The notes: generated by a model from the sequence alone, not told the origin. A DNA stretch of 36,568 nt from Clostridia bacterium (GCA_017556885.1 JAFYLV010000157.1:1-36568); one strand, 5' to 3'; shown: positions 2,533 through 32,860, numbered from the stretch's first letter. Numbers and translations: made by a program.

Positions 2533-2569
2533 GCAAAAGCCCGGGTCTGCCGGCACTGGGCAGACCCGG
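2533..2569 (-). terminator. Intrinsic terminator after the glycoside-hydrolase-like gene pair
   Basis: The minus strand reads CCGGGTCTGCC-cagtgcc-GGCAGACCCGG followed by GCTTTTG. This is a perfect 11-bp GC-rich stem plus a U-tract, located 12 nt after the TAA at 2582. Confidence 0.7.
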
Positions 2570-2581
2570 AACTTGGGGTTC

Positions 2582-3862: not shown

Positions 3863-3867
3863 TTTTT

Positions 3868-5157: not shown

Positions 5158-5224
5158 ATTCCTTTTCCTCCCTTGGGGAAGTATACGTTTTCCGGAAGGG
5201 GGCGCGCGCCCCTCTCCCGGGCCT

Positions 5225-5254
5225 ATTATACCTTATGGGTGCGGCAGATGTAAA
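5225..5254 (-). promoter_or_regulatory. Candidate promoter of the glycoside-hydrolase-like gene pair
   Basis: The minus strand reads TTTACA-18 nt-TATAAT about 70 nt upstream of the ATG at 5157. A GC-rich palindrome (5199..5212) lies in the predicted leader. Confidence 0.45.
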
Positions 5255-5369
5255 GGCGGGAGGCATACTTTGTGCACTGAAATTATGTACGGATATGCTT
5301 CCGGAGTAGCCATTTTTCTTCTCCCGTGCTATACTTATGCTGTATCATTGTGTATGGGGAAGGATTTGT

Positions 5370-6104: not shown

Positions 6105-6110
6105 CCTATT

Positions 6111-7589: not shown

Positions 7590-7614
7590 TTTTTCCCCAC
7601 GGAGCAAAAAATAC

Positions 7615-8688
7615 ATGCTTGAAAAACTGGAGAGCCTCCGCGCCCGGTATGAAGACCTGCGCCGGGAGGCCGACGATCCCGAACTGTATAACGATCCCGT
7701 CCGCAGCCGCACCGTGCTTAAGGAGCAGAAGAGCCTGCGCCCCATCATGGAGATCTACGAGGCCTATCTGAAGGCCGAGGAGGACCGCAAGGGTGCAGAG
7801 GAGCTGCTTGCCTCGCGCCCGGATCCGGAGCTTCGCGAGCTCTGCGAAGAGGAGCTTGCCGCCGCGGAGGCGGAGCTTGCCCGTCTTTCCGATGCCCTGC
7901 GGCTGCAGCTTCTGCCCAGGGATGAAAACGACGACAAAAACGTCATTCTTGAGATCCGCGCCGGTGCCGGCGGCGAAGAAGCCGCCCTGTTTGCCGCTGT
8001 GCTTTTCCGCATGTACGGCATGTATGCCGATATGCAGGGTTGGACCTTCGAGCGCCTTGGCGCGGCAGAGACCGAGCTTGGCGGCTTCAAGGAAGTCAGC
8101 GTCCGCATCGAGGCCGACGGCGCCTATTCCCGCCTGAAGTACGAAAGCGGCGTTCATCGCGTGCAGCGCGTGCCCGAGACCGAGTCCTCCGGCCGCATCC
8201 AGACCTCCACCGTCACGGTCGCCGTGCTTCCGGAGGTGGATGAGGTGGACGTGGAGATCAACCCCTCCGACCTGCAGATCGACACCTACCGCGCCAGCGG
8301 CGCCGGCGGACAGCACGTTAACAAAACGGAGTCCGCCATCCGCATCACCCACCTGCCCACCGGCACAGTGGTGGAATGTCAGGACGAGCGCAGCCAGTTC
8401 AAGAACCGTGAGCGCGCCATGAAGATCCTCCGCGCCCGTCTCTATGAGGCCGAGCAGGAGCGTCAGAATGCCGCCCGTGCCAGCGAGCGCAAGTCCCAGG
8501 TGGGCACCGGAGACCGCAGCGAGCGCATCCGCACCTACAACTATCCCCAGGGCCGCGTCTCCGATCACCGTATCGGCCTGACCCTCCACAAGCTGGACAA
8601 CATTCTCAACGGCCACATGGAAGAAGTGATTGACGCCCTCATCGCCGCCGATCAGGCAGCAAAGCTTGCCGCCTTCAGCGAACAATAA
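7615..8688 (+). CDS. prfA: Peptide chain release factor 1
   Basis: The 357-aa product carries the RF1-type tripeptide anticodon motif P-E-T ([17 protein letters not shown]) and the GGQ motif ([23 protein letters not shown]). Confidence 0.95.
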
Positions 8689-15829: not shown

Positions 15830-16465
15830 TCAGTTCTTGGCAAGTATCTGGTTTCGCAGCGGTGCAATTCCCATAACAACGGCCGCACCGATGGCCGTCA
15901 AAATGATCTCCGGCACCATATACAGGCCGTTATAGACCGCAGAATAGATGACCGCAAGCCCTGTGCCGGAAAAGCTCTGGAGGATAGATGCACCGAAGGA
16001 GTTGTTCATCACATCGGTAAAGAACCATTCGGCATAGCCGCTCCAGAGAATAACACCGGAGGCGAAATGGCACACGAACCGGAGCAGCGCCGCAAAGGCT
16101 GCGCCGACCGCCACGGCCGCGCCGTGCTTACCGATACGGCCGCGGAAGATGCCCGCAAGACCCAGCACCGCCAAGGCGACGAGATAATCCAGCAGCGCCA
16201 TCAGCACGGTGCTCAACGGGTCCAGTCCGGCAAAGGCCTGGCTTCCCACCGCGCCGAACACGCCCTGAAGCACGCCGTAGACGGCGCCGCAGCAAAGTCC
16301 CCACCGGGTGCCGTACATATAGGCGATGATGGCGACGGGCACCATGCTGAAGGCCGTGACGGCACCGCCGTAGAGAAACTGCGGGGAGATTTTGACAAAG
16401 GACAGGACAACTGCGAGGGCCACCAGCATTCCGCTGGTGACAAGACGTTTGGTGGATGCGTTCAT
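15830..16465 (-). CDS. thiT: ECF-transporter substrate-specific (S) component, ThiT-like thiamine or thiamine-precursor transporter
   Basis: The 211-aa protein has about 6 TM segments and is rich in G, A and aromatic residues, as S components typically are. It lies directly downstream of a TPP riboswitch. AAAAGGAGAG RBS is present. No ecfA/ecfT genes are adjacent, so it would use a shared module. Substrate specificity (thiamine versus HMP or thiazole) is inferred from the riboswitch only. Confidence 0.75.
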   Translation of the reverse strand: MNASTKRLVTSGMLVALAVVLSFVKISPQFLYGGAVTAFSMVPVAIIAYMYGTRWGLCCGAVYGVLQGVFGAVGSQAFAGLDPLSTVLMALLDYLVALAVLGLAGIFRGRIGKHGAAVAVGAAFAALLRFVCHFASGVILWSGYAEWFFTDVMNNSFGASILQSFSGTGLAVIYSAVYNGLYMVPEIILTAIGAAVVMGIAPLRNQILAKN

Positions 16466-17618: not shown

Positions 17619-17648
17619 TTGACAAACCTCCGGGGCATGGCGTATAAT
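17619..17648 (+). promoter_or_regulatory. Candidate sigma-A promoter of the arginine operon
   Basis: TTGACA-18 nt-TATAAT, with both hexamers matching consensus, lies about 55 nt upstream of the argG ATG. Confidence 0.6.
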
Positions 17649-17701: not shown

Positions 17702-18928
<1,227 letters not shown>

Positions 18929-18987
18929 TTTCCAAACATCACGCGGCTGCCTCCGCCTTTTGGGGACAGCCGCGTCGGAGTACACAT

Positions 18988-19914
18988 ATGACAAAGATTT
19001 TTATTGACGGAAAGGAAGGCACCACCGGCCTTCGCATCTTTGAGCGCATTGGAAACCGTTCCGGCATCGAACTTCTTACCCTTCCGGAGGAGAAGCGCAA
19101 GGACACCGAAAGCCGCCGGGAGATGCTCAACCTCTGCGACATTGCTTTCCTGTGCCTGCCCGATGCCGCCGCCCGCGAGGCCGTCAGCCTCATCGAAAAC
19201 CCCGCGGTCCGCGTTATCGACACCTCCACCGCCCACCGCACCGCCGCAGGCTGGGCCTACGGCTTCCCCGAGCTGACGCCCGACGGCGCCGCAAAGGTGG
19301 CCTCTGCCGCCCGTGTTGCCGTTCCCGGCTGCCATGCCAGCGGTTTCCTCGCGGTGACGGCGCCCCTCATTTCTGCCGGCATTCTGAATCCCAAAACCGC
19401 CCTCACCGCCGTTTCCATCACCGGCTACAGCGGTGGCGGCAAGAAGATGATCGCCGCCTATGAGGCAGAAGACCGCCCTGCCCTTTACGGCGCACCTCGC
19501 CTTTACGGCCTCTCCCAGGAGCACAAGCACCTGCCGGAGATGGTGGCCCGTTCCGGCCTTGCACAGGTGCCCTTCTTCCTGCCCTATGTGGCAGACTTCT
19601 ACAGCGGCATGCACGTTTCCGTTCCTCTGCCTGCCGAAAGCCTCTCCGGCAGCATTGACGATGTCCGCGCCTGCCTTGCGGCAGCCTACAAGGGACCCAT
19701 CGTCTCCTTTGCGGAGAATGCCGGCGAGGACGGCTTTGTCAGCGCCCTCGGCATGTCCGGCAAGGACTCCATGGAGGTCTTTGTTTCCGGCAACTCCGAC
19801 CGTATCGTTGTCGGTGCCCGTTATGACAATCTCGGCAAGGGTGCCTCCGGCGCCGCCATCCAGTGTCTCAATCTTATGCTCGGTCTTGATCCGACCGAGG
19901 GACTCGAACTGTAA
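18988..19914 (+). CDS. argC: N-acetyl-gamma-glutamyl-phosphate reductase (short, type-2 ArgC)
   Basis: MTKIFIDGKEGTTGLRI..., the catalytic Cys context VAVPGCHASG, and DNLGKGASGAAIQ near the C-terminus. The start is ATG 18988 with GGAG 7 nt upstream. The upstream extension in the ORF track was rejected. Confidence 0.9.
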   Translation: MTKIFIDGKEGTTGLRIFERIGNRSGIELLTLPEEKRKDTESRREMLNLCDIAFLCLPDAAAREAVSLIENPAVRVIDTSTAHRTAAGWAYGFPELTPDGAAKVASAARVAVPGCHASGFLAVTAPLISAGILNPKTALTAVSITGYSGGGKKMIAAYEAEDRPALYGAPRLYGLSQEHKHLPEMVARSGLAQVPFFLPYVADFYSGMHVSVPLPAESLSGSIDDVRACLAAAYKGPIVSFAENAGEDGFVSALGMSGKDSMEVFVSGNSDRIVVGARYDNLGKGASGAAIQCLNLMLGLDPTEGLEL

Positions 19915-19929
19915 GGAATTTAAAACGCT

Positions 19930-21156
19930 ATGATTACTCAGATCCCCGGCGGTGTCACTGCCGCCACCGGCTTTCAGGCCTCCGGCATCCATTGCGGCAT
20001 CCGCAAGAACCGTACCAAGCGCGATATCGCCCTCATCCTGAGCGATGTTCCTGCCTCTGCCGCAGCCGTCTACACCCAGAACCTCGTCAAGGGTGCTCCC
20101 ATCGCCGTCACCCGCCGTCACATTGCCGACGGTATCGCCCGTGCTGTCATCTGCAACTCCGGCAATGCCAACACCTGCAACGCAAACGGCGAAGAGGTCG
20201 CAGAGGAAATGTGCCGTATGACCGGCGAGATCCTCGGCATCGATGCCGGTGACGTTATCGTCGCCTCCACCGGTGTTATCGGCCAGCCCCTCAATCTGGA
20301 GCCCATCCAAAACGGTCTGCCTGCCCTCGCAGAGGCCCTCGGCTACGATGCCGAGAGCGGAACCAATGCCGCAGAGGCCATCATGACCACCGATACCGTC
20401 CGCAAGGAGATCGCCGTGGAGTTCACCCTCGGCGGAAAGACCTGCCGCATGGGCGGCATCGCCAAGGGCAGCGGTATGATCCATCCCAACATGGCCACCA
20501 TGCTGGTCTTTGTGACCACCGATGCCGCCATCGCCCCCGCTCTGCTGCAGAAGGCCCTCTCCTCCGACGTTGTGGATTCCTTCAACATGGTCAGCGTGGA
20601 CGGAGACACCTCCACCAACGATATGCTCTCCATCATGGCCAACGGCATGGCCGGAAATGAGACCGTTACGGATGAGAACAGCGCAGATTACGCCACCTTC
20701 CGTGAGGCGCTCGCCCACGTTACCCATTATCTCTGCCGCATGATCGCCGGCGACGGCGAGGGTGCCACAAAGCTGCTGGTCTGCACCGCCTCCGGCGCCA
20801 AGGATAAGCAGACTGCCCGTACCGTGGCAAAATCCGTCATCTGCTCCAGTCTCCTGAAGGCTGCCATGTTCGGCGCAGATGCCAACTGGGGCCGTGTGCT
20901 TTGCGCCATCGGCTATAGCGGTGCGGACGTGGATGTCATGCGCGTGGATGTGGACTTCCGTTCCGCCGCAGGCACCGTTTCCGTCTGCCGCAACGGCGCA
21001 GGCATCCCCTTCTCCGAGGAGATCGCCAAGACCGTCCTCTCCGAAAAGGAGATCGACATTCTGATCGGTCTCAACTCCGGCGATGCCGAAGCCACCGCCT
21101 GGGGCTGCGATCTGACCTACGATTACGTTAAGATCAACGGCGACTACCGCACCTGA
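19930..21156 (+). CDS. argJ: Bifunctional glutamate N-acetyltransferase / amino-acid acetyltransferase
   Basis: The 408-aa product contains the autoprocessing site context GSGMIHPNMATMLVFVTTDA and the C-terminal CDLTYDYVKINGDYRT. Confidence 0.95.
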   Translation: MITQIPGGVTAATGFQASGIHCGIRKNRTKRDIALILSDVPASAAAVYTQNLVKGAPIAVTRRHIADGIARAVICNSGNANTCNANGEEVAEEMCRMTGEILGIDAGDVIVASTGVIGQPLNLEPIQNGLPALAEALGYDAESGTNAAEAIMTTDTVRKEIAVEFTLGGKTCRMGGIAKGSGMIHPNMATMLVFVTTDAAIAPALLQKALSSDVVDSFNMVSVDGDTSTNDMLSIMANGMAGNETVTDENSADYATFREALAHVTHYLCRMIAGDGEGATKLLVCTASGAKDKQTARTVAKSVICSSLLKAAMFGADANWGRVLCAIGYSGADVDVMRVDVDFRSAAGTVSVCRNGAGIPFSEEIAKTVLSEKEIDILIGLNSGDAEATAWGCDLTYDYVKINGDYRT

Positions 21157-21185: not shown

Positions 21186-22037
21186 ATGGATATGAACATT
21201 GAGCTTCGGGCGGAGATCCTCAGCCGCGCCCTGCCCTACATTCAGAAATACAACGGTAAGATCCTTGTGATCAAATACGGCGGCAACGCCATGATCAATG
21301 AGGATCTGAAGCAGCAGGTCATGGAGGATCTGGTACTGCTGCATCTGGTGGGTGTCAAAGTGGTTCTGGTCCACGGCTGCGGCCCGGAGATCACCGACAT
21401 GCTCAAGCGTGTCGGCAAGGAGACCCTCTTTGTGGACGGCCTGCGTGTCACCGATGCCGAAACGGCAGAGATCGTGCAGATGGTCCTCGCCGGCAAGATC
21501 AACAAGAATCTTGTCAACCTCATCCAGAACACCGGCGGCCGCGCCATCGGTCTCTGCGGTGCCGACGGACATCTCATCGAGGCTGAGATGCGGGATGCGC
21601 GCCTCGGCTTCGTGGGCGAGATCACAAACATCAACACCCAGCCCATTCTGGATGTGCTGGAAAAGGGTTACATCCCCGTCGTTTCCACCGTGGGTGTGGA
21701 CGGCGAGGGCAACGTCTACAATATCAATGCCGATACCGCCGCCGCCCGTATCGCCGGCGAGCTCAAGGCGGAGGCTCTCATCTCCATGACCGACATCCGC
21801 GGCCTTCTCCGGGACAAGGACGATCCCGACAGCCTCATCCCCACCGTGCGCGTCAGCGACGCTCCCGCCCTGGTGGCCGACGGCATCATCTCCGGCGGCA
21901 TGATCCCCAAGGTAGACTGCTGCATCGAGGCCATCCGCCGCGGCGTCAACCGTGTCTTCATCATCGACGGCCGCGTACCCCACGCCATCCTCATCGAAAC
22001 GCTGACGGATGAGGGTATCGGCACCATGTTTTATTGA
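21186..22037 (+). CDS. argB: Acetylglutamate kinase
   Basis: The 283-aa product carries LVIKYGGNAM, VLVHGCGP and NINADTAA motifs of the amino-acid kinase family. Confidence 0.95.
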   Translation: MDMNIELRAEILSRALPYIQKYNGKILVIKYGGNAMINEDLKQQVMEDLVLLHLVGVKVVLVHGCGPEITDMLKRVGKETLFVDGLRVTDAETAEIVQMVLAGKINKNLVNLIQNTGGRAIGLCGADGHLIEAEMRDARLGFVGEITNINTQPILDVLEKGYIPVVSTVGVDGEGNVYNINADTAAARIAGELKAEALISMTDIRGLLRDKDDPDSLIPTVRVSDAPALVADGIISGGMIPKVDCCIEAIRRGVNRVFIIDGRVPHAILIETLTDEGIGTMFY

Positions 22038-22064: not shown

Positions 22065-23231
22065 ATGACCACCAAGCAACTGGATGCACAGTACATCATG
22101 CCCACCTACGCCCGCTTTGACCTGGAGATCGTCCGGGGCAGCGGCGCGGAGCTTTACGATAACGAGGGCAAGCGTTACATCGATCTCGGCAGCGGCATCG
22201 CCGTCAACACCTTTGGTGCTGCGGACCCCGATTGGGTCTCCGCCGTCACCGAGCAGGCCGGCAAGCTTGCTCACATCTCCAACCTCTACTACACCGGCCC
22301 CTGCGCGGAGCTTGCCGCCGCCCTCTGCGAGCGCACCGGCATGAAGAAGGTCTTCTTCTCCAACTCCGGCGCCGAATCCAACGAGTGCATGATCAAGGGT
22401 GCCCGCCGCCACGCGCTTCTCCACCGCGGCGAAGGCCACTCCACCATCATCACCCTCCGCCAGTCCTTCCACGGCCGCACGGTGACCACCCTGGCCGCCA
22501 CCGGACAGGATCACTTCCACACCGAGTTCGGCCCCTTCACCGAAGGCTTTGTTTACGCCACCGCCGGTGACCTCGACGAAATGAAGGCCCTGGTCGCGGA
22601 ACACGAGCCCGCCGGCATCATGATCGAGCTGGTACAGGGCGAAGGCGGCGTCATCGCGCTGGATCCCGATTACGTCTGCGCCCTCCGCAAGCTATGTGAT
22701 GAGACGGGCACGCTGCTTCTCATCGACGAGGTGCAGACGGGCAACGGCCGCACCGGCTCTCTGTATGCCTGGCAGTCCTACGGCATCACCCCGGACATCT
22801 TCTCCACCGCAAAGGGTCTCGCCGGAGGTCTTCCTTTGGGCGCCACCCTCTTCTCCGAGAAGACCGAGGACGCCCTCATCGCCGGCACCCACGGCTCCAC
22901 CTTCGGCGGCAACCCCATCTGCTGCGCCGGTGCCCTCTCGGTCATCCGGCGGCTGGATGACGAATTCCTCGCCGGGGTCCGCGCCCGGGCGGAATACATC
23001 CGGCAGGAGCTTTCCGGCGCAAAGGGCGTTGCGGATATCTCCGGTCTCGGCCTGATGATCGGCATCGAACCCGAGGGCAAGACCGCGAAGGAGATCATCG
23101 CCGCCTGCATGGAAAAGGGCGTGCTGGTGCTCTCCGCCAAATCCCGCGTACGACTGCTGCCCCCCCTGAATATTGACGAAAAGCTGCTGGCTGAGGCCAT
23201 CGGCATCCTGAAGGAGGTCCTTGCACAATGA
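22065..23231 (+). CDS. argD: Acetylornithine aminotransferase (class III PLP aminotransferase)
   Basis: The 388-aa product has SNSGAESNE, LIDEVQTG.GRTG and the PLP-lysine context DIFSTAKGLAGGLPLGA. Confidence 0.9.
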   Translation: MTTKQLDAQYIMPTYARFDLEIVRGSGAELYDNEGKRYIDLGSGIAVNTFGAADPDWVSAVTEQAGKLAHISNLYYTGPCAELAAALCERTGMKKVFFSNSGAESNECMIKGARRHALLHRGEGHSTIITLRQSFHGRTVTTLAATGQDHFHTEFGPFTEGFVYATAGDLDEMKALVAEHEPAGIMIELVQGEGGVIALDPDYVCALRKLCDETGTLLLIDEVQTGNGRTGSLYAWQSYGITPDIFSTAKGLAGGLPLGATLFSEKTEDALIAGTHGSTFGGNPICCAGALSVIRRLDDEFLAGVRARAEYIRQELSGAKGVADISGLGLMIGIEPEGKTAKEIIAACMEKGVLVLSAKSRVRLLPPLNIDEKLLAEAIGILKEVLAQ

Positions 23232-24136
23232 AACATCTTCTGAAGCTCGGCGATCTCACCCCGGAAGAGATCCTTGAGATCCTCAATCTCGCCGATCAGC
23301 TCAAATATGAGAAAAAGCACGGCATTGCCCATCATCATCTCGCGGGCCAGACTCTGGGTATGATCTTCCAGAAGTCCTCCACCCGTACCCGTGTTTCCTT
23401 TGAGGTCGGTATGTATGACCTCGGCGGCTCTGCCCTTTTCCTTTCCTCCCATGATCTGCAGATCGGCCGCGGCGAGCCCGTGCAGGACACTGCCCGCGTT
23501 CTTTCCCGTTACTTAAACGGTATCATGATCCGCACCTTTGCCCAGCAGGAGGTTGAGGATCTTGCCCGTTACGGTTCCATTCCCGTCATCAACGGTCTGA
23601 CCGACTACTGTCATCCCTGCCAGGTCCTTGCAGACCTTCTGACCATCCGCGAGCATAAGAAAGTTCTCGCCGGCAACAAGCTTTGCTTTGTCGGTGATGG
23701 CAACAATATGGCAAACTCCCTCATCGTTGGCGGTATCAAGGCCGGCATGGAAGTGTCCGTTGCCTGTCCCAAGGGTTATGAGCCCGATGCGGACATCATG
23801 TCCTGGGCTTCCGCCACCGGACGCTTCACCTGCACCGACGATGTTCTCGCCGCTGCCAGCGGTGCCGACGTTCTTTATACCGACGTTTGGGCATCCATGG
23901 GCCAGGAGGACGAGGCTGCACACCGCCAGAAGATCTTCGCAGGCTATCAGATCAACGATGCCGTTATGGCCGCCGCAAATCCCGGCGCCATGGTCCAGCA
24001 TTGCCTGCCCGCCCATCGCGGTGAGGAGATCACCAACGAGGTCTTTGAGGCCCATGCCGATGAGATCTTTGACGAAGCTGAAAACCGCCTGCATGTGCAG
24101 AAGGCCGTCATGGTTCTCTGCATGGGTAAAAAATAA
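23228..24136 (+). CDS. argF: Ornithine carbamoyltransferase
   Basis: The 302-aa product has the carbamoyl-phosphate motif SSTRTRVSFE, the ornithine motifs DVWASMG and HCLPAHRGEE. Its ATG overlaps the argD stop (ATGA). Confidence 0.9.
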   Translation: MKHLLKLGDLTPEEILEILNLADQLKYEKKHGIAHHHLAGQTLGMIFQKSSTRTRVSFEVGMYDLGGSALFLSSHDLQIGRGEPVQDTARVLSRYLNGIMIRTFAQQEVEDLARYGSIPVINGLTDYCHPCQVLADLLTIREHKKVLAGNKLCFVGDGNNMANSLIVGGIKAGMEVSVACPKGYEPDADIMSWASATGRFTCTDDVLAAASGADVLYTDVWASMGQEDEAAHRQKIFAGYQINDAVMAAANPGAMVQHCLPAHRGEEITNEVFEAHADEIFDEAENRLHVQKAVMVLCMGKK

Positions 24137-24205
24137 AATATTTCGCCTATCGCCCCGCACGAAACCGTGTGGGGCGGCGGCATATCTTACTATAACGGAG
24201 GCAAT

Positions 24206-25264
24206 ATGAAAAAAGGTTACTTAGTACTGGCAGACGGCACCGTTTACGAAGGCATCCGCTTCGGTGCGGACGCTTCCGCCGCGGGCGAGCTGGTCTTCAC
24301 CACTGCCGTTGTCGGTTACGGTGAAACCCTCACTGATCCCGCGTATTTTGGCCAGATCGTTCTGCAAACCTATCCCATGATCGGAAACTACGGCATCATT
24401 GAGGAGGATCTCACCGCAAAGCCCGCTCTTTCCGCGTACATCGTCCGGGAATACTGCGAAACCCCTTCCAACTTCCGCTGCGATATCACCATTGACGAAT
24501 ATCTCCGCCGCGAAGGTATCCCCGGTCTCGCCGGCATCGATACCCGCGCCGTTACCCGTCACATCCGCGAAGCCGGTGTTATGAACGCCATGCTCTGCGA
24601 TGAAGTTCCTGCCGATCTCTCTTCTCTCGCCGCGAAGGATTACGCCGCCGGCGGAGTGGAGAAGCTCACCTGCAAGGCAGCTTCCGAGATCCCTGCAGAG
24701 GGTGAGGAGATCGCCCACGCCGCGGTCCTCGATCTCGGCGCGGCGGATGCCGTCATCGCTCAGCTCACCGCCAAGGGCGTGCGCGTCACCCGCTTCCCCG
24801 CCTTCTCCTCTGCCGAGGAGATCCTCGCGGCAAAGCCCGACGGTCTGGTGCTCTCCGCCGGCCCGGGTGATCCCGCCGCGCTGGAGCTTCCCGCCCTGAA
24901 GGATCTCATCTACCGGCTGCCCATCTTCGGCGTGGGGCTTGGCCATCAGGTGCTTGCCATCGCCTTCGGCGGCAAGACCTTTAAGCTCAAGTACGGTCAC
25001 CGCGGCGGAAACCAGCCCGTGACCGAGGTGGGCGGCAACACCCACATCACCGCCCAGAATCACGGCTACGCTGTGGATGCCGAAAGCCTTTCCGGCATCG
25101 CCAACGTGATCTTTACCAACGCAAACGACGGCACCTGCGAGGGTCTGGAATATCCCAACCACCGCGCCTTCTCCCTGCAGTTTGCACCGGAGACCTGCCG
25201 CGTTCCCCGCGATCTCACAAATCTTTACGACCGCTTTATCAACGAAATGAAGGGAGTCCGCTAA
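24206..25264 (+). CDS. carA: Carbamoyl-phosphate synthase small subunit homolog with a degenerate glutaminase catalytic triad
   Basis: The 352-aa product starts MKKGYLVLADGTVYEG... with the N-terminal CPSase small-chain domain, followed by a class I GATase-like domain (SAGPGDP, GLGHQ, GGNQPV, AQNHGYAV). The nucleophile Cys position reads Gly (FGVGLGHQ) and the catalytic His position reads Ala (LQFAPE). The start is ATG 24206, after ACGGAGG. Confidence 0.9.
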   Translation: MKKGYLVLADGTVYEGIRFGADASAAGELVFTTAVVGYGETLTDPAYFGQIVLQTYPMIGNYGIIEEDLTAKPALSAYIVREYCETPSNFRCDITIDEYLRREGIPGLAGIDTRAVTRHIREAGVMNAMLCDEVPADLSSLAAKDYAAGGVEKLTCKAASEIPAEGEEIAHAAVLDLGAADAVIAQLTAKGVRVTRFPAFSSAEEILAAKPDGLVLSAGPGDPAALELPALKDLIYRLPIFGVGLGHQVLAIAFGGKTFKLKYGHRGGNQPVTEVGGNTHITAQNHGYAVDAESLSGIANVIFTNANDGTCEGLEYPNHRAFSLQFAPETCRVPRDLTNLYDRFINEMKGVR

Positions 25265-28200
25265 TGCCTCTGCAGAAAAACATCCGTAAAGTCCTCGTCA
25301 TCGGTTCCGGCCCCATCGTCATCGGCCAGGCTGCAGAGTTTGACTATGCCGGCACCCAGGCCTGCGCCATTCTGAAAAAAGAAGGCCTCAACGTCGTTCT
25401 CGTCAACTCCACCCCCGCCACCATCATGACCGACTCGGCCTGTGCCTACGAGATCTATCTCGAGCCCCTCACCGAGACCACCCTCAAGCGTATTATCGAA
25501 AAAGAAAAACCCGACAGCATCCTTGCCGGCCTCGGCGGTCAGACCGGTCTGACCCTCGCCATGAAGCTGGACAAGGAGGGCTATCTGGACCGCATGGGCG
25601 TCAAGCTTCTCGGCACCAACGCCGAGGCTATTGACCGTGCCGAGGACCGCCAGCTCTTTAAGGACACCATGGAGTCCATCGACCAGCCCTGCATCCCCTC
25701 CGATATTGCCAACGATCTGCCCACCGCGCTGGAGATCGCCGCCCGCATCGGCTACCCCGTCATCGTCCGTCCCGCCTTCACCCTCGGCGGCTCCGGCGGC
25801 GGTGTTGCCTATAGCGAGGAAGAGATGCGTGTCATCGCCCAGACGGGTCTTGACCGCTCCCCCATCACTCAGATCCTTGTCGAGAAGTACATTTTCGGCT
25901 GGAAAGAGGTCGAGTTTGAGACCATGCGCGACAGCGCGGGCAATGCCATCGCCGTCTGCAGCATGGAGAACGTGGATGCCGTCGGCGTTCACACCGGCGA
26001 CAGCGTCGTCGTCGCCCCGGCGCTCACCCTCTCCCCCAAGGAGTACGAGATGCTCCGCGCCGCCTCTCTGAAGATCATTGATGCCCTCGGCATCGTCGGC
26101 GGCTGCAACTGCCAGTTCGCCCTCAATCCCGAGAGCTTTGAGTATGCCGTCATCGAGGTCAACCCCCGCGTTTCCCGCTCCTCCGCCCTGGCAAGTAAGG
26201 CCACCGGCTACCCCATTGCGAAGATCACCACCAAGGTCGCTCTCGGCTACACCCTGCCCGAGATCAAGAACGATATCACCGGTGTCACCTGTGCCTGCTT
26301 TGAGCCCAGCGTTGACTACGTGGTCGTCAAGTTCCCCAAGTGGCCCTTTGACAAGTTTGCCGGCGCAAGCCGTAACCTCGGCACCCAGATGAAGGCCACC
26401 GGTGAGGTCATGTCCATCGCCTCCACCTTCGAGGCTGCTCTCATGAAGGCCGTGCGCGGCTGTGAGATCTCTCTGGACACCCTCAATGCCGCCCCCCTCT
26501 CGGACAAGCCCCTTACCGAGCGCCTTGCCGAGCTCAACGACCGCCGTCTCTTCACCGTCTTTGAGGCGCTGAAGGCCGGTATGTCCATCGACGAGATCCA
26601 CCGCATTACCGCCATCGACGAGTGGTTCCTCTGCAAGATGAAGAACCTCGCCGATTTCGAGGCTCGCATCGCCGGCGGTCTTTCCGACGAGGATTACAAG
26701 CTCGGAAAGAAGCTCGGCTATCCCGATGCCGCCCTTTCCCGCATCTCCGGCCGCAAGGATCTGCCCCATATCCCCTGCGTGTACAAGATGGTCGACACCT
26801 GCGCTGCGGAATTTGATGCCCAGACCCCCTATTTCTACGCCACCTACGATGAGGAATGTGAGGCCGAGCGTTTTGCCGCCTCTCCCAAGCCCCGTATCCT
26901 GGTGCTTGGCTCCGGCCCCATCCGTATCGGACAGGGTATCGAGTTTGACTACTCCTCCGTCCACTGCGTTTGGGCGCTGAAGAAGCTCGGCTATGACGTT
27001 GTTATCGTCAACAACAACCCCGAGACCGTTTCAACCGACTATGACACCTCCGACCGCCTCTACTTCGAGCCGCTGACCAGCGAGGATGTCATGAACATCA
27101 TCGAAAAAGAGCATCCCGAGGGCGTTGTTGTGGCCTTTGGCGGCCAGACCGCCATCAAGCTCACCCAGTTCCTCGACCGCAGCGGCATCCGCATCTTCGG
27201 CACCTCCGCCGAAAGCATCGACGTTGCCGAGGACCGCGAGCGCTTTGATGCGCTGCTGGAGCAGTTCAACATCCGCCGTCCTCAGGGCTGCGGCGTTCTC
27301 ACTATGGACGAGGCCCTCGCCGCGGCCAACCGCCTCGGCTATCCCGTGCTGCTCCGTCCCTCCTACGTCATCGGCGGTCAGAACATGACCATCGCCCGCT
27401 CCGATGAGGATGTGCGCGTCTATATGACCCGTATCCTCGCCGGAAAGATCGAGAACCCCGTGCTGGTCGACAAGTACATGATGGGCACCGAGCTGGAGGT
27501 GGACGTCATCTCCGACGGAAAGGACGTTCTCATCCCCGGTGTCATGGAGCACGTGGAGCGCGCCGGCGTCCACAGCGGTGACTCCATCGCCGTCTATCCT
27601 CCCTACAACATCAACGATAAGATGCTGGAAAAGGTAGTGGATTACTCCACCCGCCTCGCCCTCGCCATGGGCACCCGCGGCCTGGTCAACATCCAGTACC
27701 TCATCTATCACAACGAGCTCTACGTCATCGAGGTCAACCCCCGCGCCTCCCGTACCGTGCCTTACATCAGCAAGGTCACCGGCATCCCCATGGTCGACCT
27801 CGCCGCCCGCGTCATGGTCGGTCAGACCCTCGCAGAGCAGGGCTACGGCACCGGCCTGTACCGCACGCCGCCCTACTACACCGTTAAGGTCCCCGTCTTC
27901 TCCTTTGAGAAGCTGCTGGATGCCAACTCCCGCCTCGGCCCGGAGATGAAGTCCACCGGTGAGGTGCTCGGTATCGGTAAGAACCTCAACGAGGCTCTCT
28001 TCAAGGGTCTCACCGCCGCCGGCAATATCGTTACCACCGCCCAGGCCGCCGACTGCGGCGTCTTCATCTGCGTTGACACCCACGACAGCTACGAGATCGT
28101 CGGCATCGCAAAGAAGTTCTCCGACCTCGGCATGACCCTTTACGTCACTCCCGAGACCAACCGCGCCATCGAAGGCCTCGGCATCGAGACTACCGTCGTT

Positions 28201-29292
28201 CCTGCCCCGCAGGACGATCCCACCGTCTACAATCTCATCGACGAGGGTAAGATCAGCTACATCATCTACACCGGTGCCATCCATGATACCGGCGCGGACG
28301 ACTACATTGAGCTGCACCGCCGCGCGATGCTGCACTCCATCGTCTGCCTGACCTCCCTTGACACTGCAAACGCCCTGGCCGACATCGTCGCAAGCCGCTT
28401 CAACGAGCTCAACACCGAGCTTGTGGACATCAACCACCTGCGCCGTTCCCGTCAGACCCTCGCCTTCTCCAAGATGCAGGGCTCCGGTGACGACTACATC
28501 TTCATCGACAACCGCGACCAGCGCATCACCTGCCCGGAATCCCTCTGCGTCAACCTCTGCCGTCCCCACACCGGTGTCGGTGCCGACGGTATCGCCCTCA
28601 TCGAGAATTCCGACGTGGCCGACTGCCGCATGCGCATCTTCAACACCGACGGCAGCGAGGGCCGCATGGCGGGCAACTGCATCCGCTGCGTGGGCAAGTA
28701 TGTCTACGATAAGGGCATCGTCCGCAAGGAGACCATCACCGTTGAGACCGCGAGCGGCGTGCGTGAGCTGAAGCTCTATACCCGCAACGGTAAGGTCAAC
28801 TACGTTACCGTCTGCATGGGCAAGGCCGATCTCTCCGCCGCAAGCCTGCCCACCACCCTGCCCGGTGACAAGCTCATCGATACCCCCGTCACCGTCGGCG
28901 GCAAGGAATACCGCATCACCTGCGTCTCCGTTGGCAATCCCCACTGCGTCATCTTCTGTGACAACGTGGACCGCGCGGACGTTGCCGGTGTCGGCCCCCT
29001 CTTTGAGAGCGCGCCCTTCTTCCCCGAGCGCATCAACACCGAGTTTATCCGCGTCGTCAACCCGCGCACCATCAAGATGCGCGTCTACGAGCGCGGCAAC
29101 GGCGAAACCCCTGCCTGCGGCACCGGCGCTTGTGCCGCGGTCGTCGCCGCCGTGGAAAACGGCTTCTGCAAGAAGGGCGAGGATATCACCGTCAAGCTGA
29201 CCGGCGGCGACCTGCTGGTCAACTACTCCGACGAGGGCGTCTTCCTCTCCGGCAATGCAAAGCTCGTCTTCGAGGGCTATACCGAGTATTGA
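25264..29292 (+). CDS. carB: Carbamoyl-phosphate synthase large subunit fused in frame to a C-terminal diaminopimelate-epimerase (DapF)-like domain
   Basis: This is a single 1342-aa ORF. Residues 1 to about 1065 form a complete CarB: two ATP-grasp halves (GSGPIVIGQAAEFDYAG and GSGPIRIGQGIEFDYSS), an oligomerisation domain and an MGS-like allosteric domain. Residues from about 1066 to 1342 form a complete DapF fold (FSKMQGSGDDYIFID, FNTDGSE, VSVGNPHCV, INTEF, YERGNGETPACGTGACA). The ATG overlaps the carA stop (TAATG). Confidence 0.9.
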   Translation: MPLQKNIRKVLVIGSGPIVIGQAAEFDYAGTQACAILKKEGLNVVLVNSTPATIMTDSACAYEIYLEPLTETTLKRIIEKEKPDSILAGLGGQTGLTLAMKLDKEGYLDRMGVKLLGTNAEAIDRAEDRQLFKDTMESIDQPCIPSDIANDLPTALEIAARIGYPVIVRPAFTLGGSGGGVAYSEEEMRVIAQTGLDRSPITQILVEKYIFGWKEVEFETMRDSAGNAIAVCSMENVDAVGVHTGDSVVVAPALTLSPKEYEMLRAASLKIIDALGIVGGCNCQFALNPESFEYAVIEVNPRVSRSSALASKATGYPIAKITTKVALGYTLPEIKNDITGVTCACFEPSVDYVVVKFPKWPFDKFAGASRNLGTQMKATGEVMSIASTFEAALMKAVRGCEISLDTLNAAPLSDKPLTERLAELNDRRLFTVFEALKAGMSIDEIHRITAIDEWFLCKMKNLADFEARIAGGLSDEDYKLGKKLGYPDAALSRISGRKDLPHIPCVYKMVDTCAAEFDAQTPYFYATYDEECEAERFAASPKPRILVLGSGPIRIGQGIEFDYSSVHCVWALKKLGYDVVIVNNNPETVSTDYDTSDRLYFEPLTSEDVMNIIEKEHPEGVVVAFGGQTAIKLTQFLDRSGIRIFGTSAESIDVAEDRERFDALLEQFNIRRPQGCGVLTMDEALAAANRLGYPVLLRPSYVIGGQNMTIARSDEDVRVYMTRILAGKIENPVLVDKYMMGTELEVDVISDGKDVLIPGVMEHVERAGVHSGDSIAVYPPYNINDKMLEKVVDYSTRLALAMGTRGLVNIQYLIYHNELYVIEVNPRASRTVPYISKVTGIPMVDLAARVMVGQTLAEQGYGTGLYRTPPYYTVKVPVFSFEKLLDANSRLGPEMKSTGEVLGIGKNLNEALFKGLTAAGNIVTTAQAADCGVFICVDTHDSYEIVGIAKKFSDLGMTLYVTPETNRAIEGLGIETTVVPAPQDDPTVYNLIDEGKISYIIYTGAIHDTGADDYIELHRRAMLHSIVCLTSLDTANALADIVASRFNELNTELVDINHLRRSRQTLAFSKMQGSGDDYIFIDNRDQRITCPESLCVNLCRPHTGVGADGIALIENSDVADCRMRIFNTDGSEGRMAGNCIRCVGKYVYDKGIVRKETITVETASGVRELKLYTRNGKVNYVTVCMGKADLSAASLPTTLPGDKLIDTPVTVGGKEYRITCVSVGNPHCVIFCDNVDRADVAGVGPLFESAPFFPERINTEFIRVVNPRTIKMRVYERGNGETPACGTGACAAVVAAVENGFCKKGEDITVKLTGGDLLVNYSDEGVFLSGNAKLVFEGYTEY

Positions 29293-29310: not shown

Positions 29311-29344
29311 AAAAAGCCGGTGAAGTGATTCACCGGCTTTTTTG
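29311..29344 (+). terminator. Intrinsic terminator of the arginine/CPS operon
   Basis: The sequence is AGCCGGTGAA-gtga-TTCACCGGCT followed by TTTTTTG, located 20 nt after the carB-dapF stop. Confidence 0.85.
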
Positions 29345-30898: not shown

Positions 30899-32860
30899 AT
30901 GTCTGACATTGAAAAGACCCCCGACACCGCCCCGGAGGAACTTCTGAACTCTATCCGATCCATTGCGGATGAGACCACTGCCGAGGCTATCCACGAGGCC
31001 ATTGCGGAATCCCCCGAGCAGGTGGAAGCCCCTCCCGCCATTGCTGTTTCCGCCGAAAGCACCCCGGAGCCCGTGTCCGCTGAAGAAACAGCAGAGGAAG
31101 CACCGACGGATCCCTCCGTTCCCACAGATAAGCCGGCACGTTCCCGCAAACCGCTGTGGATCACCCTTGCGGCGATCTGCGGCGCGGTTGTGCTGCTTTT
31201 CTGTGCACTTCTTTGGCTTGTTTACGTCAAAAAGAGCGTTTATCCCGGCGTCAGTGTCATGGGAAACAGTTTCTCCGGCCTTAACGCCGCAGAGATCCGC
31301 GTGCGTTTAAATGAGCTTAACGATGTCACATTCAAGGACAAGAGCATCACCGTATCCTTCCGCGGCGAGACCCTTTCCGTCTCCACCGAGGAACTCGGCA
31401 TGCACTATGATACAACGGATGTGACCGATAAGCTTCTCGCCTACGGCCGCGAAGGCTCCTTCTTTGCCCGCATCAAGGCCATTTTCTCCGCCTGGTGCAA
31501 CGGCTATAACGTGGATCTCTCCTCTGCCTACGCAACAGAGCTTCTTTCCGCCCGTCTCGGCGGTTTTGCAGATCAGGTCTACGTTCCCGTCCGCGAGTTT
31601 TCCCACACTGTCTCCGGAGACAGCGTGACCGTCCTTGCGGGCATACCCGGCTATGCGCTGGATGTGGATGCCGCTCTTGCCGAAATTAGCCGCCGCATCA
31701 ACGCCGGCGATTTCTCTCCGCTGGAGCTGCAGCCCGTGGTCACAGAGCCTGCCGCAATCAATGTGGAGACCCTCTATACCGCCGTGTATGTTGCCCCTGT
31801 CAACGCCCGCGTCAACGCCACCTCTCCCACTGCCTATACCGTTGTCGCACACAAAAACGGCCGCGATTTTGACAAGGCTGCCGCGGAGAAGGCCCTTGCC
31901 GGACTCGGCTACGGTGAGCATCTTGCCCTTCCCCTGCGGGTAATGGAGGCTAAGGTCAAATATGAGGATCTCGCCGGCCGCGAGTTCTTCACCGATATTC
32001 TCGGCACCACCTCCTCCACCTTCAATGTCCGTGAGGTCAACCGCACTGTAAACGTCACCCTTGCCGCGAAACACTGCAACGGCATCGTGCTTATGCCCGG
32101 TGACGAATTCTCCTTCAACGGCTCCGTCGGTCCCCGTACCGCCGCCCGCGGTTTCAAATCTGCCGCTATTTTTGCCGGCGGCGAGGTTGTGGACGGCCTC
32201 GGCGGCGGTATCTGTCAGGTGTCTTCCATGATCTATATGTCCGTCCTGAAGGCGGAGCTTGCCATCGTCAACCGCCGTCCTCACCGCTTTATCGTGGATT
32301 ATACTCCCATCGGCCAGGACGCCACGGTGGTTTACGGCTCCATTGACTTCAAGTTCAAAAACTCCAATTCCAATCCCGTTTATCTCTCCGCCACCATTTC
32401 CGGCAGCACGCTGACCGTCACCCTGTACGGCACCTCCGCATATACCGGAGAAGGTGAGCGCACCGTGACCCTGGAGACCAAGATCAACTCCACCACCGCC
32501 TACACCACCAAATATACCACCGATAATTCCCTTGCTCCCGGTGCCAGCAAGGTCACCCAGAAGGGAAAGAACGGTTACACCTGTGAGGTCTGGCGCGTAG
32601 TCCGTATTGACGGTGCCGAGGTTTCCCGCGAGAAGGTCAACAATTCCTCCTATTCTCCCTGTACCAAGCAGGTCAAGCAGGGCCCCACTCCCACAGCGGC
32701 TCCGGAAGCCCCCGGTCTGACTGTCATACCGCATCCTACGGCCACCCCGACCCCCACCGCGACCGCAGCACCCACGCAGACGCCCGTTCCCTCGCCCACG
32801 ACGGAGCCGATGCCGACGCCCGAGCCCACCCCTGAGGTGACCGCCGCCCCTGCTGCCTGA
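30899..32860 (+). CDS. VanW-family membrane-anchored protein with a G5 domain and a Pro/Thr-rich tail
   Basis: The product has an acidic N-terminal region, a single TM helix (LWITLAAICGAVVLLFCALLWLVYV), a VanW core (GGGICQVSSMIYMSVL), a G5-like module (KVTQKGKNGYTCEVWRVVRIDG...REKVNNSSYSP) and a C-terminal PTATPTPTATAAPTQTPVPSPTTEPMPTPEPTPE tail. AAGGAG RBS lies upstream. Confidence 0.8.
   Translation: MSDIEKTPDTAPEELLNSIRSIADETTAEAIHEAIAESPEQVEAPPAIAVSAESTPEPVSAEETAEEAPTDPSVPTDKPARSRKPLWITLAAICGAVVLLFCALLWLVYVKKSVYPGVSVMGNSFSGLNAAEIRVRLNELNDVTFKDKSITVSFRGETLSVSTEELGMHYDTTDVTDKLLAYGREGSFFARIKAIFSAWCNGYNVDLSSAYATELLSARLGGFADQVYVPVREFSHTVSGDSVTVLAGIPGYALDVDAALAEISRRINAGDFSPLELQPVVTEPAAINVETLYTAVYVAPVNARVNATSPTAYTVVAHKNGRDFDKAAAEKALAGLGYGEHLALPLRVMEAKVKYEDLAGREFFTDILGTTSSTFNVREVNRTVNVTLAAKHCNGIVLMPGDEFSFNGSVGPRTAARGFKSAAIFAGGEVVDGLGGGICQVSSMIYMSVLKAELAIVNRRPHRFIVDYTPIGQDATVVYGSIDFKFKNSNSNPVYLSATISGSTLTVTLYGTSAYTGEGERTVTLETKINSTTAYTTKYTTDNSLAPGASKVTQKGKNGYTCEVWRVVRIDGAEVSREKVNNSSYSPCTKQVKQGPTPTAAPEAPGLTVIPHPTATPTPTATAAPTQTPVPSPTTEPMPTPEPTPEVTAAPAA

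Follow-up and report, generated by a model that had tools for sequence, protein, structure and literature searches.

A carbamoyl-phosphate synthase large subunit fused to a DapF-like domain lacking a catalytic cysteine in the arginine operon of Oscillospirales

A 36,568 nt stretch of DNA from a gut-dwelling Clostridia bacterium (GCA_017556885.1, JAFYLV010000157.1; hereafter the window) carries a gene for the large subunit of carbamoyl-phosphate synthase (CPS), CarB, that runs on into a domain resembling diaminopimelate (DAP) epimerase, DapF. Is this a natural fusion and, if so, what might the appended domain do on a CPS encoded among arginine genes?

The fused gene and its operon

The fused ORF (25264..29292; this and all other genes and residues described are on the + strand) has 1342 codons, an ATG start and no stop or frameshift, bearing out an earlier note on this DNA that had described CarB fused in frame to a DapF-like domain. 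The product (1342 aa) is identical to NCBI MBR6556995.1, titled 'MAG: carbamoyl-phosphate synthase large subunit [Clostridia bacterium]', i.e., from a metagenome-assembled genome. Residues 1–1044 (25264..28395) are the CarB portion, with two ATP-grasp halves, the oligomerisation domain and the MGS-like allosteric domain, as assigned by Pfam and NCBIfam and by alignment to residues 773–1046 of E. coli CarB. This portion matches the CarB equivalog NF003671 at 1402.7 bits (cut-off 599; profile positions 1–1048 of 1058) and TIGR01369 at 1371 bits (cut-off 1027), a full-length match to known CarB (E. coli 1BXR/1JDB), from which the window protein differs by ~285 extra C-terminal residues. The CarB C-terminal tail and a short linker follow (residues 1045–1066; 28396..28461), with a constant length across all fused proteins, and then the DapF-like domain (residues 1067–1342; 28462..29289), an intact two-lobed DapF fold recognised by TIGR00652, an AF2 model and Foldseek. 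The match to the DapF equivalog TIGR00652 scores 275.7–280.2 bits (cut-off 114.65) over residues 1067–1339 and profile positions 2–267 of 270. The Pfam domains that the earlier note had expected (two CPSase_L_D2, MGS, two DAP_epimerase) were all found, together with two CPSase_L_D1 and CPSase_L_D3; MGS spans residues 944–1030 and the DAP_epimerase pair reaches residue 1334. With a complete CarB domain set beside an adjacent carA, and a DapF profile match above cut-off over the full model in a two-lobed fold, the gene is a real fusion of a complete CarB and a full-length DapF fold.

The junction reads '...NTELVDINHLRRSRQTLAFSKMQGSGDDY', and the join falls exactly at the native start of DapF, the free-standing relatives of which begin 'MKLxFTKMHG'. 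Alignment of 62 fused sequences showed zero indels at this point. Independent translation of the DapF part had been judged unlikely, and this was upheld: the sequence upstream of the internal ATG at 28474, CCCTCGCCTTCTCCAAG, contains no Shine-Dalgarno-like run, and the Met at this position is the conserved residue of the DapF motif 'KM(H/Q)G'. In the AF2 model (pLDDT 87.8) the linker is of moderate confidence only (pLDDT ~62–74) and the DapF-like domain is mostly above 90. Foldseek gave the same two-lobed fold as solved DapFs (EC 5.1.1.7; TIGR00652, PF01678; 1BWZ/2GKE, 2OTN, 9MRO, 3EJX), with a TM of 0.83–0.91 to 2OTN, 9MRO and 3EJX, an RMSD of 1.8 Å at TM 0.91 to the ligand-bound DapF 9MRO, and 35–41% identity in the structural alignments. 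The matches also included the one-base enzymes PhzF and trans-3-hydroxy-L-proline (T3LHyp) dehydratase (6R76, 4K7G), at 12–17% identity.

The surrounding genes point to an arginine operon of which the fusion is the terminal cistron, in the predicted order promoter - argG-argC-argJ-argB-argD-argF-carA-carB::dapF - terminator. A sigma-70-type sequence upstream of argG (TTGACA-18-TATAAT, 17619..17648, + strand), a 12/12 match to the consensus and identified by this match only, is by its position the likely operon promoter. It is followed by argG (argininosuccinate synthase, 17702..18928; NF001770, 587 bits, cut-off 334), argC (N-acetyl-gamma-glutamyl-phosphate reductase, 18904..19914, start codon uncertain; assigned by Semialdhyde_dh and Semialdhyde_dhC_1 domains and by the position of argC in related loci), argJ (19930..21156; NF003802, 469 bits), argB (21186..22037; TIGR00761, 253 bits), argD (22065..23231; TIGR00707, 418 bits), argF (23228..24136; NF001986, 440 bits) and carA (CPS small subunit, 24167..25264; NF009475, 364 bits), the stop codon of which shares 1 nt with the carB start (TAATG). 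A 14 bp hairpin with flanking A- and T-runs (AAAAAGCCGGTGAA-TCAC-TTCACCGGCTTTTT, 29311..29342), 19 nt past the stop codon of the fused gene, resembles a bidirectional terminator. The window CPS genes resemble arginine-specific CPS genes of Firmicutes (Bacillus carAB) and lie directly after argF, which encodes the carbamoyl phosphate consumer ornithine carbamoyltransferase; this neighbourhood is consistent with carbamoyl-phosphate synthesis by the CarB part. No lysine-pathway genes were found in the window. Unlike E. coli CarB, the window protein has Y, A, Y and G at the equivalents of K954, K993, N1015 and T1017, positions that bind UMP/IMP in the E. coli enzyme.

Spread of the fusion and its two groups

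The fusion was uninterrupted in 62/62 reference-genome loci with a long enough contig; the remaining 18 run off contig ends, and no junction break was seen in any locus examined. At least 262 species-level Oscillospirales genomes contain a junction-spanning relative of the query, the fusion occurs in hundreds of protein clusters, and the best 120 full-length database matches are all fused (1339–1347 aa). No lineage with an intact carB and a truncated or deleted DapF-like domain was seen among the loci examined. The origin of the window in a metagenome-assembled genome is the one point in favour of an assembly or sequencing artefact that joined separate carB and dapF genes, and this explanation is refuted, with a negligible residual chance, because the fusion is conserved across loci and assemblies: the same indel-free junction recurs in assemblies made independently in many studies and from many hosts, and cultured isolates of group 1 (see below) are fused too (Ruminococcoides intestinale CLA-JM-H38, Eubacterium sp. 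OM08-24 and Ruminococcaceae bacterium AB4001). The earlier note had not recognised the architecture, and no description of CarB::DapF was found in the searchable literature, but it is far from rare: it is common in Oscillospirales and is held in public databases as CarB, NCBI naming the fusions only "carbamoyl-phosphate synthase large subunit".

Two groups can be distinguished among the fusions, alike in architecture, junction position and linker length. Group 1 (Ruminococcus, Ruminococcoides intestinale, Saccharofermentans, Eubacterium sp. OM08-24, Ruminococcaceae AB4001) carries a DapF domain of the canonical type, both catalytic cysteines included, and is 53–57% identical to the window over the MGS-tail and DapF region. 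Group 2 contains the window and closes the argC-J-B-D-F-carA operon, and its Cys73 (DapF numbering) is always replaced by Ala or Gly. Group-1 proteins keep Asn11, Cys73 and Cys217. The CarB allosteric domain differs too: a lysine corresponds to K993 in 19/19 group-1 proteins, against a variable residue in group 2, and the position matching N1015 holds Ser in group 1 but Tyr in group 2. Group-1 genes adjoin dapL (15/20 loci; identity confirmed by TIGR03542, 513 bits, cut-off 365) and lie outside the arg operon (arg genes in 0/20), with pyrG adjoining in 4/20. Group-2 loci carry argF (42/65) and argC, argJ, argB and argD (29–34/65), and dapL was found within 10 kb in 0/65; the group-2 domain shows no association with DAP- or lysine-pathway genes.

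The nearest free-standing DapFs are encoded in the orders ANTAR-RR - dapF - pyrG and ANTAR - purF - carA - guaA - PCC - dapF - pyrG - aminotransferase. As dapF in related Oscillospirales clusters with carA, pyrG and dapL, headed by an ANTAR response regulator gene, loss of the carB stop codon beside an adjoining dapF would fuse neighbouring genes, and the best reading of the gene orders is this mundane joining of operon neighbours. Groups 1 and 2 are not sisters in an NJ tree, so that fusion first and cysteine loss later is a likely, rather than proven, order, and there may have been two independent fusions. In group 2 the gene has become part of the arginine operon, with the linkage to dapL gone, Cys73 lost and Asn11 usually changed to Asp.

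A DapF pocket with one catalytic cysteine

The appended domain had been described as a complete epimerase, which holds for the fold, full-length as seen above, but fails for the catalytic set. HMMER aligned 'rmAGNCirc' of the window to 'ksCGNGlrc' of B. anthracis DapF, and two further structures agreed (2OTN, 9MRO and 3EJX in all), so that Ala1136 (GCG, 28669..28671) stands in for catalytic Cys73, the lesion that defines the domain. Position 73 is A110/G8/S1/R1 among 120 homologues and A60/G5 in the 65 group-2 loci, with no Cys in either set, and is Cys in 129/139 representatives without CarB sequence upstream. The second catalytic cysteine, Cys217 (Cys1285, 29116..29118), is kept in 120/120 homologues and 85/85 loci. 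Asp1076 (28489..28491) occupies the Asn11 position, which is Asn in all group-1 proteins and 99% of free-standing DapFs, and in group 2 is Asp in 59/65 loci and Asn in 6/65 (Asn in 44/120 homologues). The change to Asp co-varies with the cysteine loss. Cys1139 (28678..28680), at DapF position 76, lies three residues past the lost cysteine at helix position N3 and could be near the would-be site of the Cys73 thiol, as a possible substitute. It is not conserved: position 76 is S58/C25/N16/A12/G4/V3 in the 120 homologues, and Gly or Ala in canonical enzymes.

The substrate contacts of DapF are Asn11, Asn64, Gly74, Asn75, Asn157, Asn190, Glu208, Arg209, Gly218 and Ser/Thr219, Asn11 touching the reactive alpha-amine (PMC8225329, citing Pillai 2006). 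Only Asn11 is altered in the window domain, which keeps N64, G74, N75, N157, N190, E208, R209, G218 and T219 along with Cys217. Among the 120 homologues and the group-2 loci, N64, G74, H159, N190, E208, R209, C217 and G218 are invariant and N75, N157 and S/T219 nearly so. The DAP pocket therefore looks competent for binding, with a changed contact to the reactive amine. Conserved changes specific to group 2 (N11D, C73A, and S211N in 'ERGxGET') lie in or near active-site loops, and no new conserved catalytic residue was found in the group-2 pocket. A racemase of the O-ureido-serine type (DcsC), considered in view of an earlier suggestion of a ureido amino acid substrate, was rejected: the match to 7VDY (1e-36) is poorer than that to DapF 2OTN (1e-70), and the distal residues N64, N157, N190 and R209 of DapF are retained.

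Codon comparisons indicate that the domain is under purifying selection. Compared with its two closest relatives, the window gene has dN/dS values of 0.072 and 0.112 over the DapF codons, and the DapF part has diverged 1.34 times as far as CarB within group 2 and 1.26 times as far within group 1. Across >60 species the DapF-like domain differs by ~37%, yet its DAP-contact residues are invariant or nearly so.

Possible roles of the appended domain

What the sequences show is the architecture and how it is conserved, the lost cysteine, a retained pocket, selective constraint and an arginine-operon setting; the loss of epimerase activity, the ligand and any regulatory role are inferred. With one of the two catalytic cysteines missing, the appended domain probably serves in ligand binding or regulation and does not work as an epimerase. 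In the fuller proposal, for which we see the chances as evenly balanced, the group-2 domain has ceased to be a two-thiol epimerase and was retained on an arginine-pathway CPS as a module that binds a DAP-type ligand, regulates or has a structural part. The two-thiol deprotonation and reprotonation that define DAP epimerase would have been lost, and the domain would still fold and bind DAP or a very close analogue, with Cys217 and the residues holding diaminopimelate at either end retained. A module of this kind, non-epimerising and covalently attached where the CPS allosteric domain ends, might serve as a ligand-sensing clamp that modulates carbamoyl-phosphate synthesis, or as an obligatory structural or oligomerisation partner. 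The clamp is plausible because DapF closes over its substrate. Of three roles suggested previously, a regulatory or oligomerisation module fits best, and coupling of lysine and cell-wall to arginine metabolism through a working epimerase fits group 2 worst. E. coli DapF activates RppH by binding to it, a precedent for a DapF that regulates another protein non-catalytically (6D13; PMC6061791), although there the partners are non-covalently joined, DapF is catalytically intact and the target is an RNA pyrophosphohydrolase and not a CPS. Counting against a regulatory or structural module, it is hard to see physiologically why DAP should control an arginine-pathway CPS, the two modules may not be rigidly coupled, given the moderate AF2 confidence of the linker, and the 100% conservation of Cys217, not obviously needed by a pure binding module, hints at residual or different chemistry.

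In a truly bifunctional enzyme, the domain would still epimerise LL-DAP to meso-DAP through a replacement acid/base (candidates are Cys or Ser at position 76, such as Cys1139, Asp at position 11, or water in the Cys-to-Ala cavity), and the fusion would merely give co-expression with the arginine enzymes. The TIGR00652 score far above cut-off, the retention of Cys217 and the checked DAP contacts, the strong purifying selection and the covariation of Asn11-to-Asp would all suit such an enzyme, as would position 76 (a polar residue, be it Ser, Cys or Asn, in 83% of group-2 proteins; canonically Gly or Ala), the lack of a second DapF in any flank of the loci examined, and the group-1 fusions, which by their residues look like working DapFs. 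None of the substitutes is conserved, however: ~16% of the proteins have A, G or V at position 76 and 13% have Asn there, position 11 remains Asn in 6/65 loci and 44/120 proteins, and position 73 varies between Ala and Gly. The C73A/C217A mutant of E. coli DapF, reported as a double mutant only, has no detectable epimerase activity (PMC6061791). Linkage to dapL is wholly lost (0/65 versus 15/20). The single C73A mutant of H. influenzae DapF reportedly lacks epimerase activity as well, in work of Koo et al. from 2000. Continued epimerisation is thus unlikely in our judgement, unless group-2 genomes prove to have neither a separate canonical DapF nor a meso-DAP dehydrogenase, in which case the domain must supply meso-DAP.

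The cysteine loss, the Ala/Gly drift and the lost dapL linkage would suit a functionless passenger or structural relic, in which CarB folding or assembly came to need the domain and catalysis decayed once another route to meso-DAP existed, leaving no ligand-dependent role; nonsense or frameshift mutations in the carB part of some lineages show that the locus can decay. A structural role alone does not predict (nearly) invariant DAP-contacting polar residues over >60 species, and a dN/dS of 0.07–0.11 and the failure to see any lineage that dropped the domain and kept carB also speak against a relic, which we rate slightly less probable than a bifunctional enzyme. A little lower still we place a neofunctionalised enzyme, in which Cys217 would perform one-base chemistry on a DAP-like substrate (elimination or dehydration, stereospecific proton exchange) or form a thiol adduct, an S-carbamoyl intermediate for example. 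In its favour are the invariance of Cys217 despite its lost partner and the clustering of N11D, C73A and S211N in or near active-site loops, and the appended domain sits, judging from E. coli CPS structures, on the half that releases carbamoyl phosphate. The fold class of PLP-independent racemases includes the one-base enzymes PhzF and T3LHyp dehydratase, and in the proline-racemase superfamily replacement of one Cys turned an epimerase into trans-3-hydroxy-L-proline dehydratase; one-cysteine relatives, in which one residue of the catalytic pair is gone, have changed in function and have not disappeared as proteins. But the case is entirely one of analogy: these relatives have other substrates and a conserved functional replacement residue where the window domain has Ala/Gly at position 73, the unchanged N64, N157, N190 and R209 require a DAP-shaped substrate, on which we know of no reaction in arginine metabolism, and the pocket has gained no conserved catalytic residue.

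A bolder pair of proposals, a diaminopimelate-sensing clamp on the CPS allosteric domain or new chemistry by the single Cys217 on a DAP-like substrate beside the carbamoyl-phosphate exit, is conceivable but doubtful. If the clamp is true, it would be a previously unknown regulation of CPS, by which a retired cell-wall and lysine enzyme reports precursor status to arginine synthesis in Oscillospirales that are abundant in gut and rumen; should the domain prove a ligand sensor, an allosteric enzyme that has been studied very thoroughly would gain a new input to its regulation. The fusion touches no long-standing open question, and its consequences for annotation are more immediate. Thousands of Oscillospirales proteins are named only 'carbamoyl-phosphate synthase large subunit', or 'diaminopimelate epimerase, partial' when fragments. 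When metabolism is reconstructed from gut and rumen MAGs, the sole DapF of group-1 organisms will be overlooked, and group-2 organisms will be wrongly assigned a DapF in which one catalytic cysteine is missing; each error affects predictions of lysine and meso-DAP prototrophy. The series from free-standing enzyme to fused active enzyme to fused domain without a catalytic residue, its pocket intact, makes the CarB::DapF family a good natural system for following how pseudoenzyme or sensor domains emerge.

The fused gene and its distribution

The fused frame (25264..29292, plus strand) is uninterrupted over its 1342 codons. Pfam searches recovered the complete CarB set (CPSase_L_D1 and CPSase_L_D2 twice each, CPSase_L_D3, and MGS at aa 944-1030), followed by two DAP_epimerase matches extending to aa 1334. 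Among the NCBIfam equivalogs, the CarB model NF003671 scored 1402.7 bits across aa 1-1044, and the DapF model TIGR00652 scored 275.7 bits (cut-off 114.65) across aa 1067-1339 and positions 2-267 of the 270-position profile. The in-frame fusion described in the earlier note, and the sequence observations made there, were thus accurate, and every domain it had expected (CPSase_L_D2 twice, MGS, DAP_epimerase twice) is present. As it had also remarked, no Shine-Dalgarno-like run lies upstream of the internal ATG at 28474, a codon that specifies the conserved Met of the DapF 'KM(H/Q)G' motif. AlphaFold2 modelling of aa 901-1342 (mean pLDDT 87.8, pTM 0.74; DapF part mostly >90) predicts an intact DapF fold, and the model matches the ligand-bound cyanobacterial DapF 9MRO with a TM score of 0.91 and an RMSD of 1.8 Å.

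The identical protein is in NCBI as MBR6556995.1 ('MAG: carbamoyl-phosphate synthase large subunit [Clostridia bacterium]'). Among species-level reference genomes, the goat-caecum MAG RGIG1911 comes closest (98% identity). With a junction-spanning query (aa 901-1342), all 120 matches listed cross the junction and bear both MGS and DAP_epimerase. The full-length query listed 120 clusters of 1339-1347 aa (72-99% identity), all with PF01678; where NCBI or JGI name them, it is only as 'carbamoyl-phosphate synthase large subunit'. When one genome per GTDB species was scanned, at least 262 contained a relative of the query. Carriers are labelled in their records as Acutalibacteraceae, Oscillospiraceae, Ruminococcaceae, Faecousia, Saccharofermentans and Ruminococcus. 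Full-text literature searches turned up no description of a CarB::DapF fusion or of a cysteine-less DapF.

This conservation makes an assembly artefact very unlikely. The chance that assembly or sequencing errors created the fusion is negligible, given that 62 of 80 fetched loci have an open frame of more than 1300 codons, the other 18 reach a contig end, none is broken at the junction, and the carriers include the cultured isolates Ruminococcoides intestinale CLA-JM-H38, Eubacterium sp. OM08-24 and Ruminococcaceae bacterium AB4001. A shorter architecture, suggested by the first homologue search (matches of 400-770 aa, with recurring lengths of 449, 501, 560 and 636 aa), was rejected: these matches are gene calls that start from conserved internal Met residues, run up against contig ends or come from broken genes, and the full-length query gave only proteins of about 1343 aa.

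Some relatives may be decayed or rearranged. The group 2 gene (groups are defined below) on locus L001 (ENA ERZ27247188 k141_60464) can be aligned with the window's protein over the whole length (71% identity) and has two in-frame TAG codons, at 6612-6614 and 7989-7991, in place of the window's Ser306 and Glu765 codons, both within conserved CarB motifs. Its DapF-like part is open despite these, and the same C-terminal product occurs on locus L002; L001 may be a pseudogene or a case of amber suppression. Loci L003 (~7900-7925) and L005 (~6630-6665; ENA ERZ1049800 and ERZ1045721) share a frameshift plus the loss of about five codons near window aa 672-680, splitting carB in this species into products of ~706 and 639 aa, the latter ending with an intact cysteine-less DapF domain; the 639-aa product (cluster P0036) recurs unchanged on 17 contigs drawn from several metagenome assemblies. 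The CarB alignment of locus L004 lacks the window's aa 408-679. Protein cluster P0081 (722 aa, 10 member sequences) passes from the N-terminal ~240 residues of CarA straight into the CarB C-terminal region ('GVPMVELATKVM...'), and continues with the allosteric and DapF-like domains, representing either a large in-frame deletion or a chimeric assembly.

Two groups of fusion and their origin

The fusions fall into two groups. Group 1 (20 loci; Ruminococcus spp., R. intestinale, Eubacterium sp. OM08-24, Saccharofermentans and AB4001) has Asn at position 11 and Cys at positions 73 and 217 (H. influenzae-type DapF numbering). Group 2 (65 loci plus the window; Acutalibacteraceae, Oscillospiraceae, Faecousia and others) retains Cys217, and has Asp at position 11 in 59 of 65 loci and Ala (60) or Gly (5) at position 73. 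It also carries a conserved, group-specific S211N substitution in the 'ERGxGET' loop, and 92% of its proteins have a new Cys at position 25 ('TCPES'), where group 1 and free-standing DapFs have Asn or Asp. This Cys, which could be an interface or redox site, is Cys1090 of the window (28531-28533, motif ITCPES). Two more Cys lie near it in the window's protein, giving C-x4-C-x3-C.

Gene neighbourhoods differ as well. A dapL gene (TIGR03542, 513 bits against a cut-off of 365) lies within 10 kb in 15 of 20 group 1 loci and in none of 65 in group 2, and arg genes are nearby in 0/20 and, for group 2, in 42/65 (argF) and 29-34/65 (argC/J/B/D), loci without the expected neighbours lying mostly on short contigs. 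Four group 1 loci have pyrG downstream of the fusion. In the window, a putative sigma-70 promoter matching the consensus at 12/12 positions (17619-17648) stands upstream of argG, and argG-argC-argJ-argB-argD-argF-carA-carB::dapF follow in series with short or overlapping junctions, up to a 14-bp bidirectional hairpin (29311-29342) after the stop codon of the fused gene. The window's CPS is therefore an arginine-operon enzyme.

The allosteric domain of the window's CarB (28090-28275, aa 943-1004) was aligned to E. coli CarB. At the equivalents of K954, K993, N1015 and T1017, which we take to be the UMP/IMP contacts of the E. coli enzyme, the window has Y, A, Y and G. The last three are K, S and S in 19/19 group 1 proteins, and in group 2 variable, Y and G. 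These residues suggest that CPS regulation also changed between the groups, and that the nucleotide-effector site was altered when the fused CPS joined the arginine operon.

The gene order in R. intestinale is ANTAR response regulator - carA - carB::dapF - pyrG - dapL. The nearest free-standing, Cys-bearing DapF (protein cluster P0251, 53% identical) is found in the order ANTAR response regulator - dapF - pyrG - nadE, and an abundant gut species (loci L088-L097, e.g., L088 1-8657) has ANTAR - purF - carA - guaA - PCC - dapF - pyrG - class-I/II aminotransferase. From these orders, dapF belongs to an ANTAR-headed glutamine-amidotransferase gene cluster, in which it was once beside carB. The cluster of L088-L097 suggests a nitrogen-dependent regulon under ANTAR control, with dapF and a dapL-like aminotransferase among its members; the carA of this cluster is an orphan, with no carB inside 5 kb.

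Free-standing relatives begin 'MKLxFTKMHG', and the corresponding stretch of the fused proteins is '...NTELVDINHMRxxxxx-LxFxKMQG'; the fusion joint therefore corresponds to the native start of DapF. No junction indels occur among 62 aligned full-length fused proteins, and simple loss of the carB stop codon beside dapF would give a junction of this kind. The architecture, which the earlier note had not recognised from any known protein, turns out to be common in one bacterial order and of simple origin. An NJ tree of DapF domains shows group 2 as monophyletic and places group 1 with pyrG-linked free-standing DapFs; its deep nodes are very short, and it is compatible with one or two fusion events.

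A tblastn search of all flanks for a second, canonical dapF in group 2 genomes found none, save a 41-aa fragment in locus L045 (11540-11662). This piece, 61% identical to the C-terminal end of the DapF-like domain, sits some 500 bp past an intact fused gene and is a small duplicated remnant. The nearest free-standing DapFs, when traced to their contigs, bear record names that differ from those of every group 2 genome, and tetranucleotide correlations gave no link between the abundant species with a free-standing dapF and group 2 loci (≤0.83, against ~0.95 inside one genome).

Other features of the window were also inspected. On the minus strand, a TPP riboswitch (RF00059, 16553-16669; 61 bits, gathering score 54.3) stands between a promoter-like site matching the consensus at 12/12 positions (16710-16682) and a thiT-like ORF (Thia_YuaJ/ECF-S thiamine transporter, 15830-16465), an ordinary arrangement. 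In the region 2300-7600, the long minus-strand ORFs (2582-3919, 3868-5157 and 5283-7748) had no Pfam match; the region is probably encoded on the plus strand instead, by the ORFs 2351-3886, 3760-4395, 4492-5253, 5337-6104 and 6111-7589. A 653-aa protein downstream of uxaC (30899-32860, plus strand) has a VanW-like domain (aa 379-505; 68 bits, under the family cut-off) and is unrelated to the fusion.

Active site of the DapF-like domain

Catalysis by DapF uses a thiolate-thiol pair, Cys73 and Cys217. Activity of the C73A/C217A double mutant is reported to be undetectable (PMC6061791). HMMER alignment to the solved DapFs 2OTN, 9MRO and 3EJX sets the window's 'RMAGNCIRC' opposite '(K/E)(S/M)CGNG(L/I/V)RC', and the first catalytic Cys is therefore replaced by Ala1136 (28669-28671, codon GCG). 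Among the 120 junction-spanning homologues, position 73 is occupied by Ala (110), Gly (8), Ser (1) or Arg (1) and never by Cys, and Cys217 is kept in all. A HMMER search covering 1.84 billion representatives gave 139 matches without upstream CarB sequence, of which 129 have Cys at position 73. The earlier note had called the epimerase complete, a description that fails for the window's lineage at this residue.

Residues gripping the reactive-centre carboxylate and distal end of DAP are listed in PMC8225329 (citing Pillai et al. 2006), where Asn11 touches the reactive alpha-amine. Across the 120 homologues the gripping residues are kept: Asn64, Gly74, His159, Asn190, Glu208, Arg209 and Gly218 are invariant, and Asn75, Asn157 and Ser/Thr219 nearly so. 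Position 11 is Asp in 76. A DcsC-like ureido-amino-acid racemase was considered and rejected, with 7VDY matching at 1e-36 against 1e-70 for the DapF 2OTN, and the distal residues N64, N157, N190 and R209 kept.

Possible roles of the domain

That the domain still works as an epimerase, using some unconventional second base, is unlikely. The window does have Cys1139 at position 76, one helical turn past the lost Cys73, and this thiol could lie near the former place of Cys73. However, no conserved substitute for the lost thiol occurs among the homologues: position 73 shifts between Ala and Gly, position 76 varies (S58/C25/N16/A12/G4/V3), and position 11 is Asp or Asn. A new chemistry that uses one cysteine is more doubtful still.

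A structural relic is also improbable, ranking between these two. The ratio of amino-acid divergence in the DapF part to that in the CarB part is 1.34 in group 2 and 1.26 in group 1. Comparison with the two closest relatives gives dN/dS values of 0.072 and 0.112 for DapF codons and 0.013 and 0.070 for CarB codons. These values show purifying selection on the domain, and the polar pocket residues stay invariant or nearly so while species differ by ~37% across it. Together, they speak against a decaying relic and argue for ligand binding having been retained by the cysteine-less domain.

The earlier note had proposed that the fusion couples cell-wall or lysine metabolism to that of arginine, acts on a different diamino or ureido amino acid, or provides a regulatory or oligomerisation module, and the regulatory module is the best supported of the three. 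E. coli DapF, which activates RppH, is a precedent for a DapF fold regulating another protein (PMC6061791), like the role proposed for the group 2 domain. We give about even weight to the reading that, in this clade, the domain would no longer epimerise DAP, would still bind DAP or a close analogue, and would serve as a regulatory or structural module of CPS.
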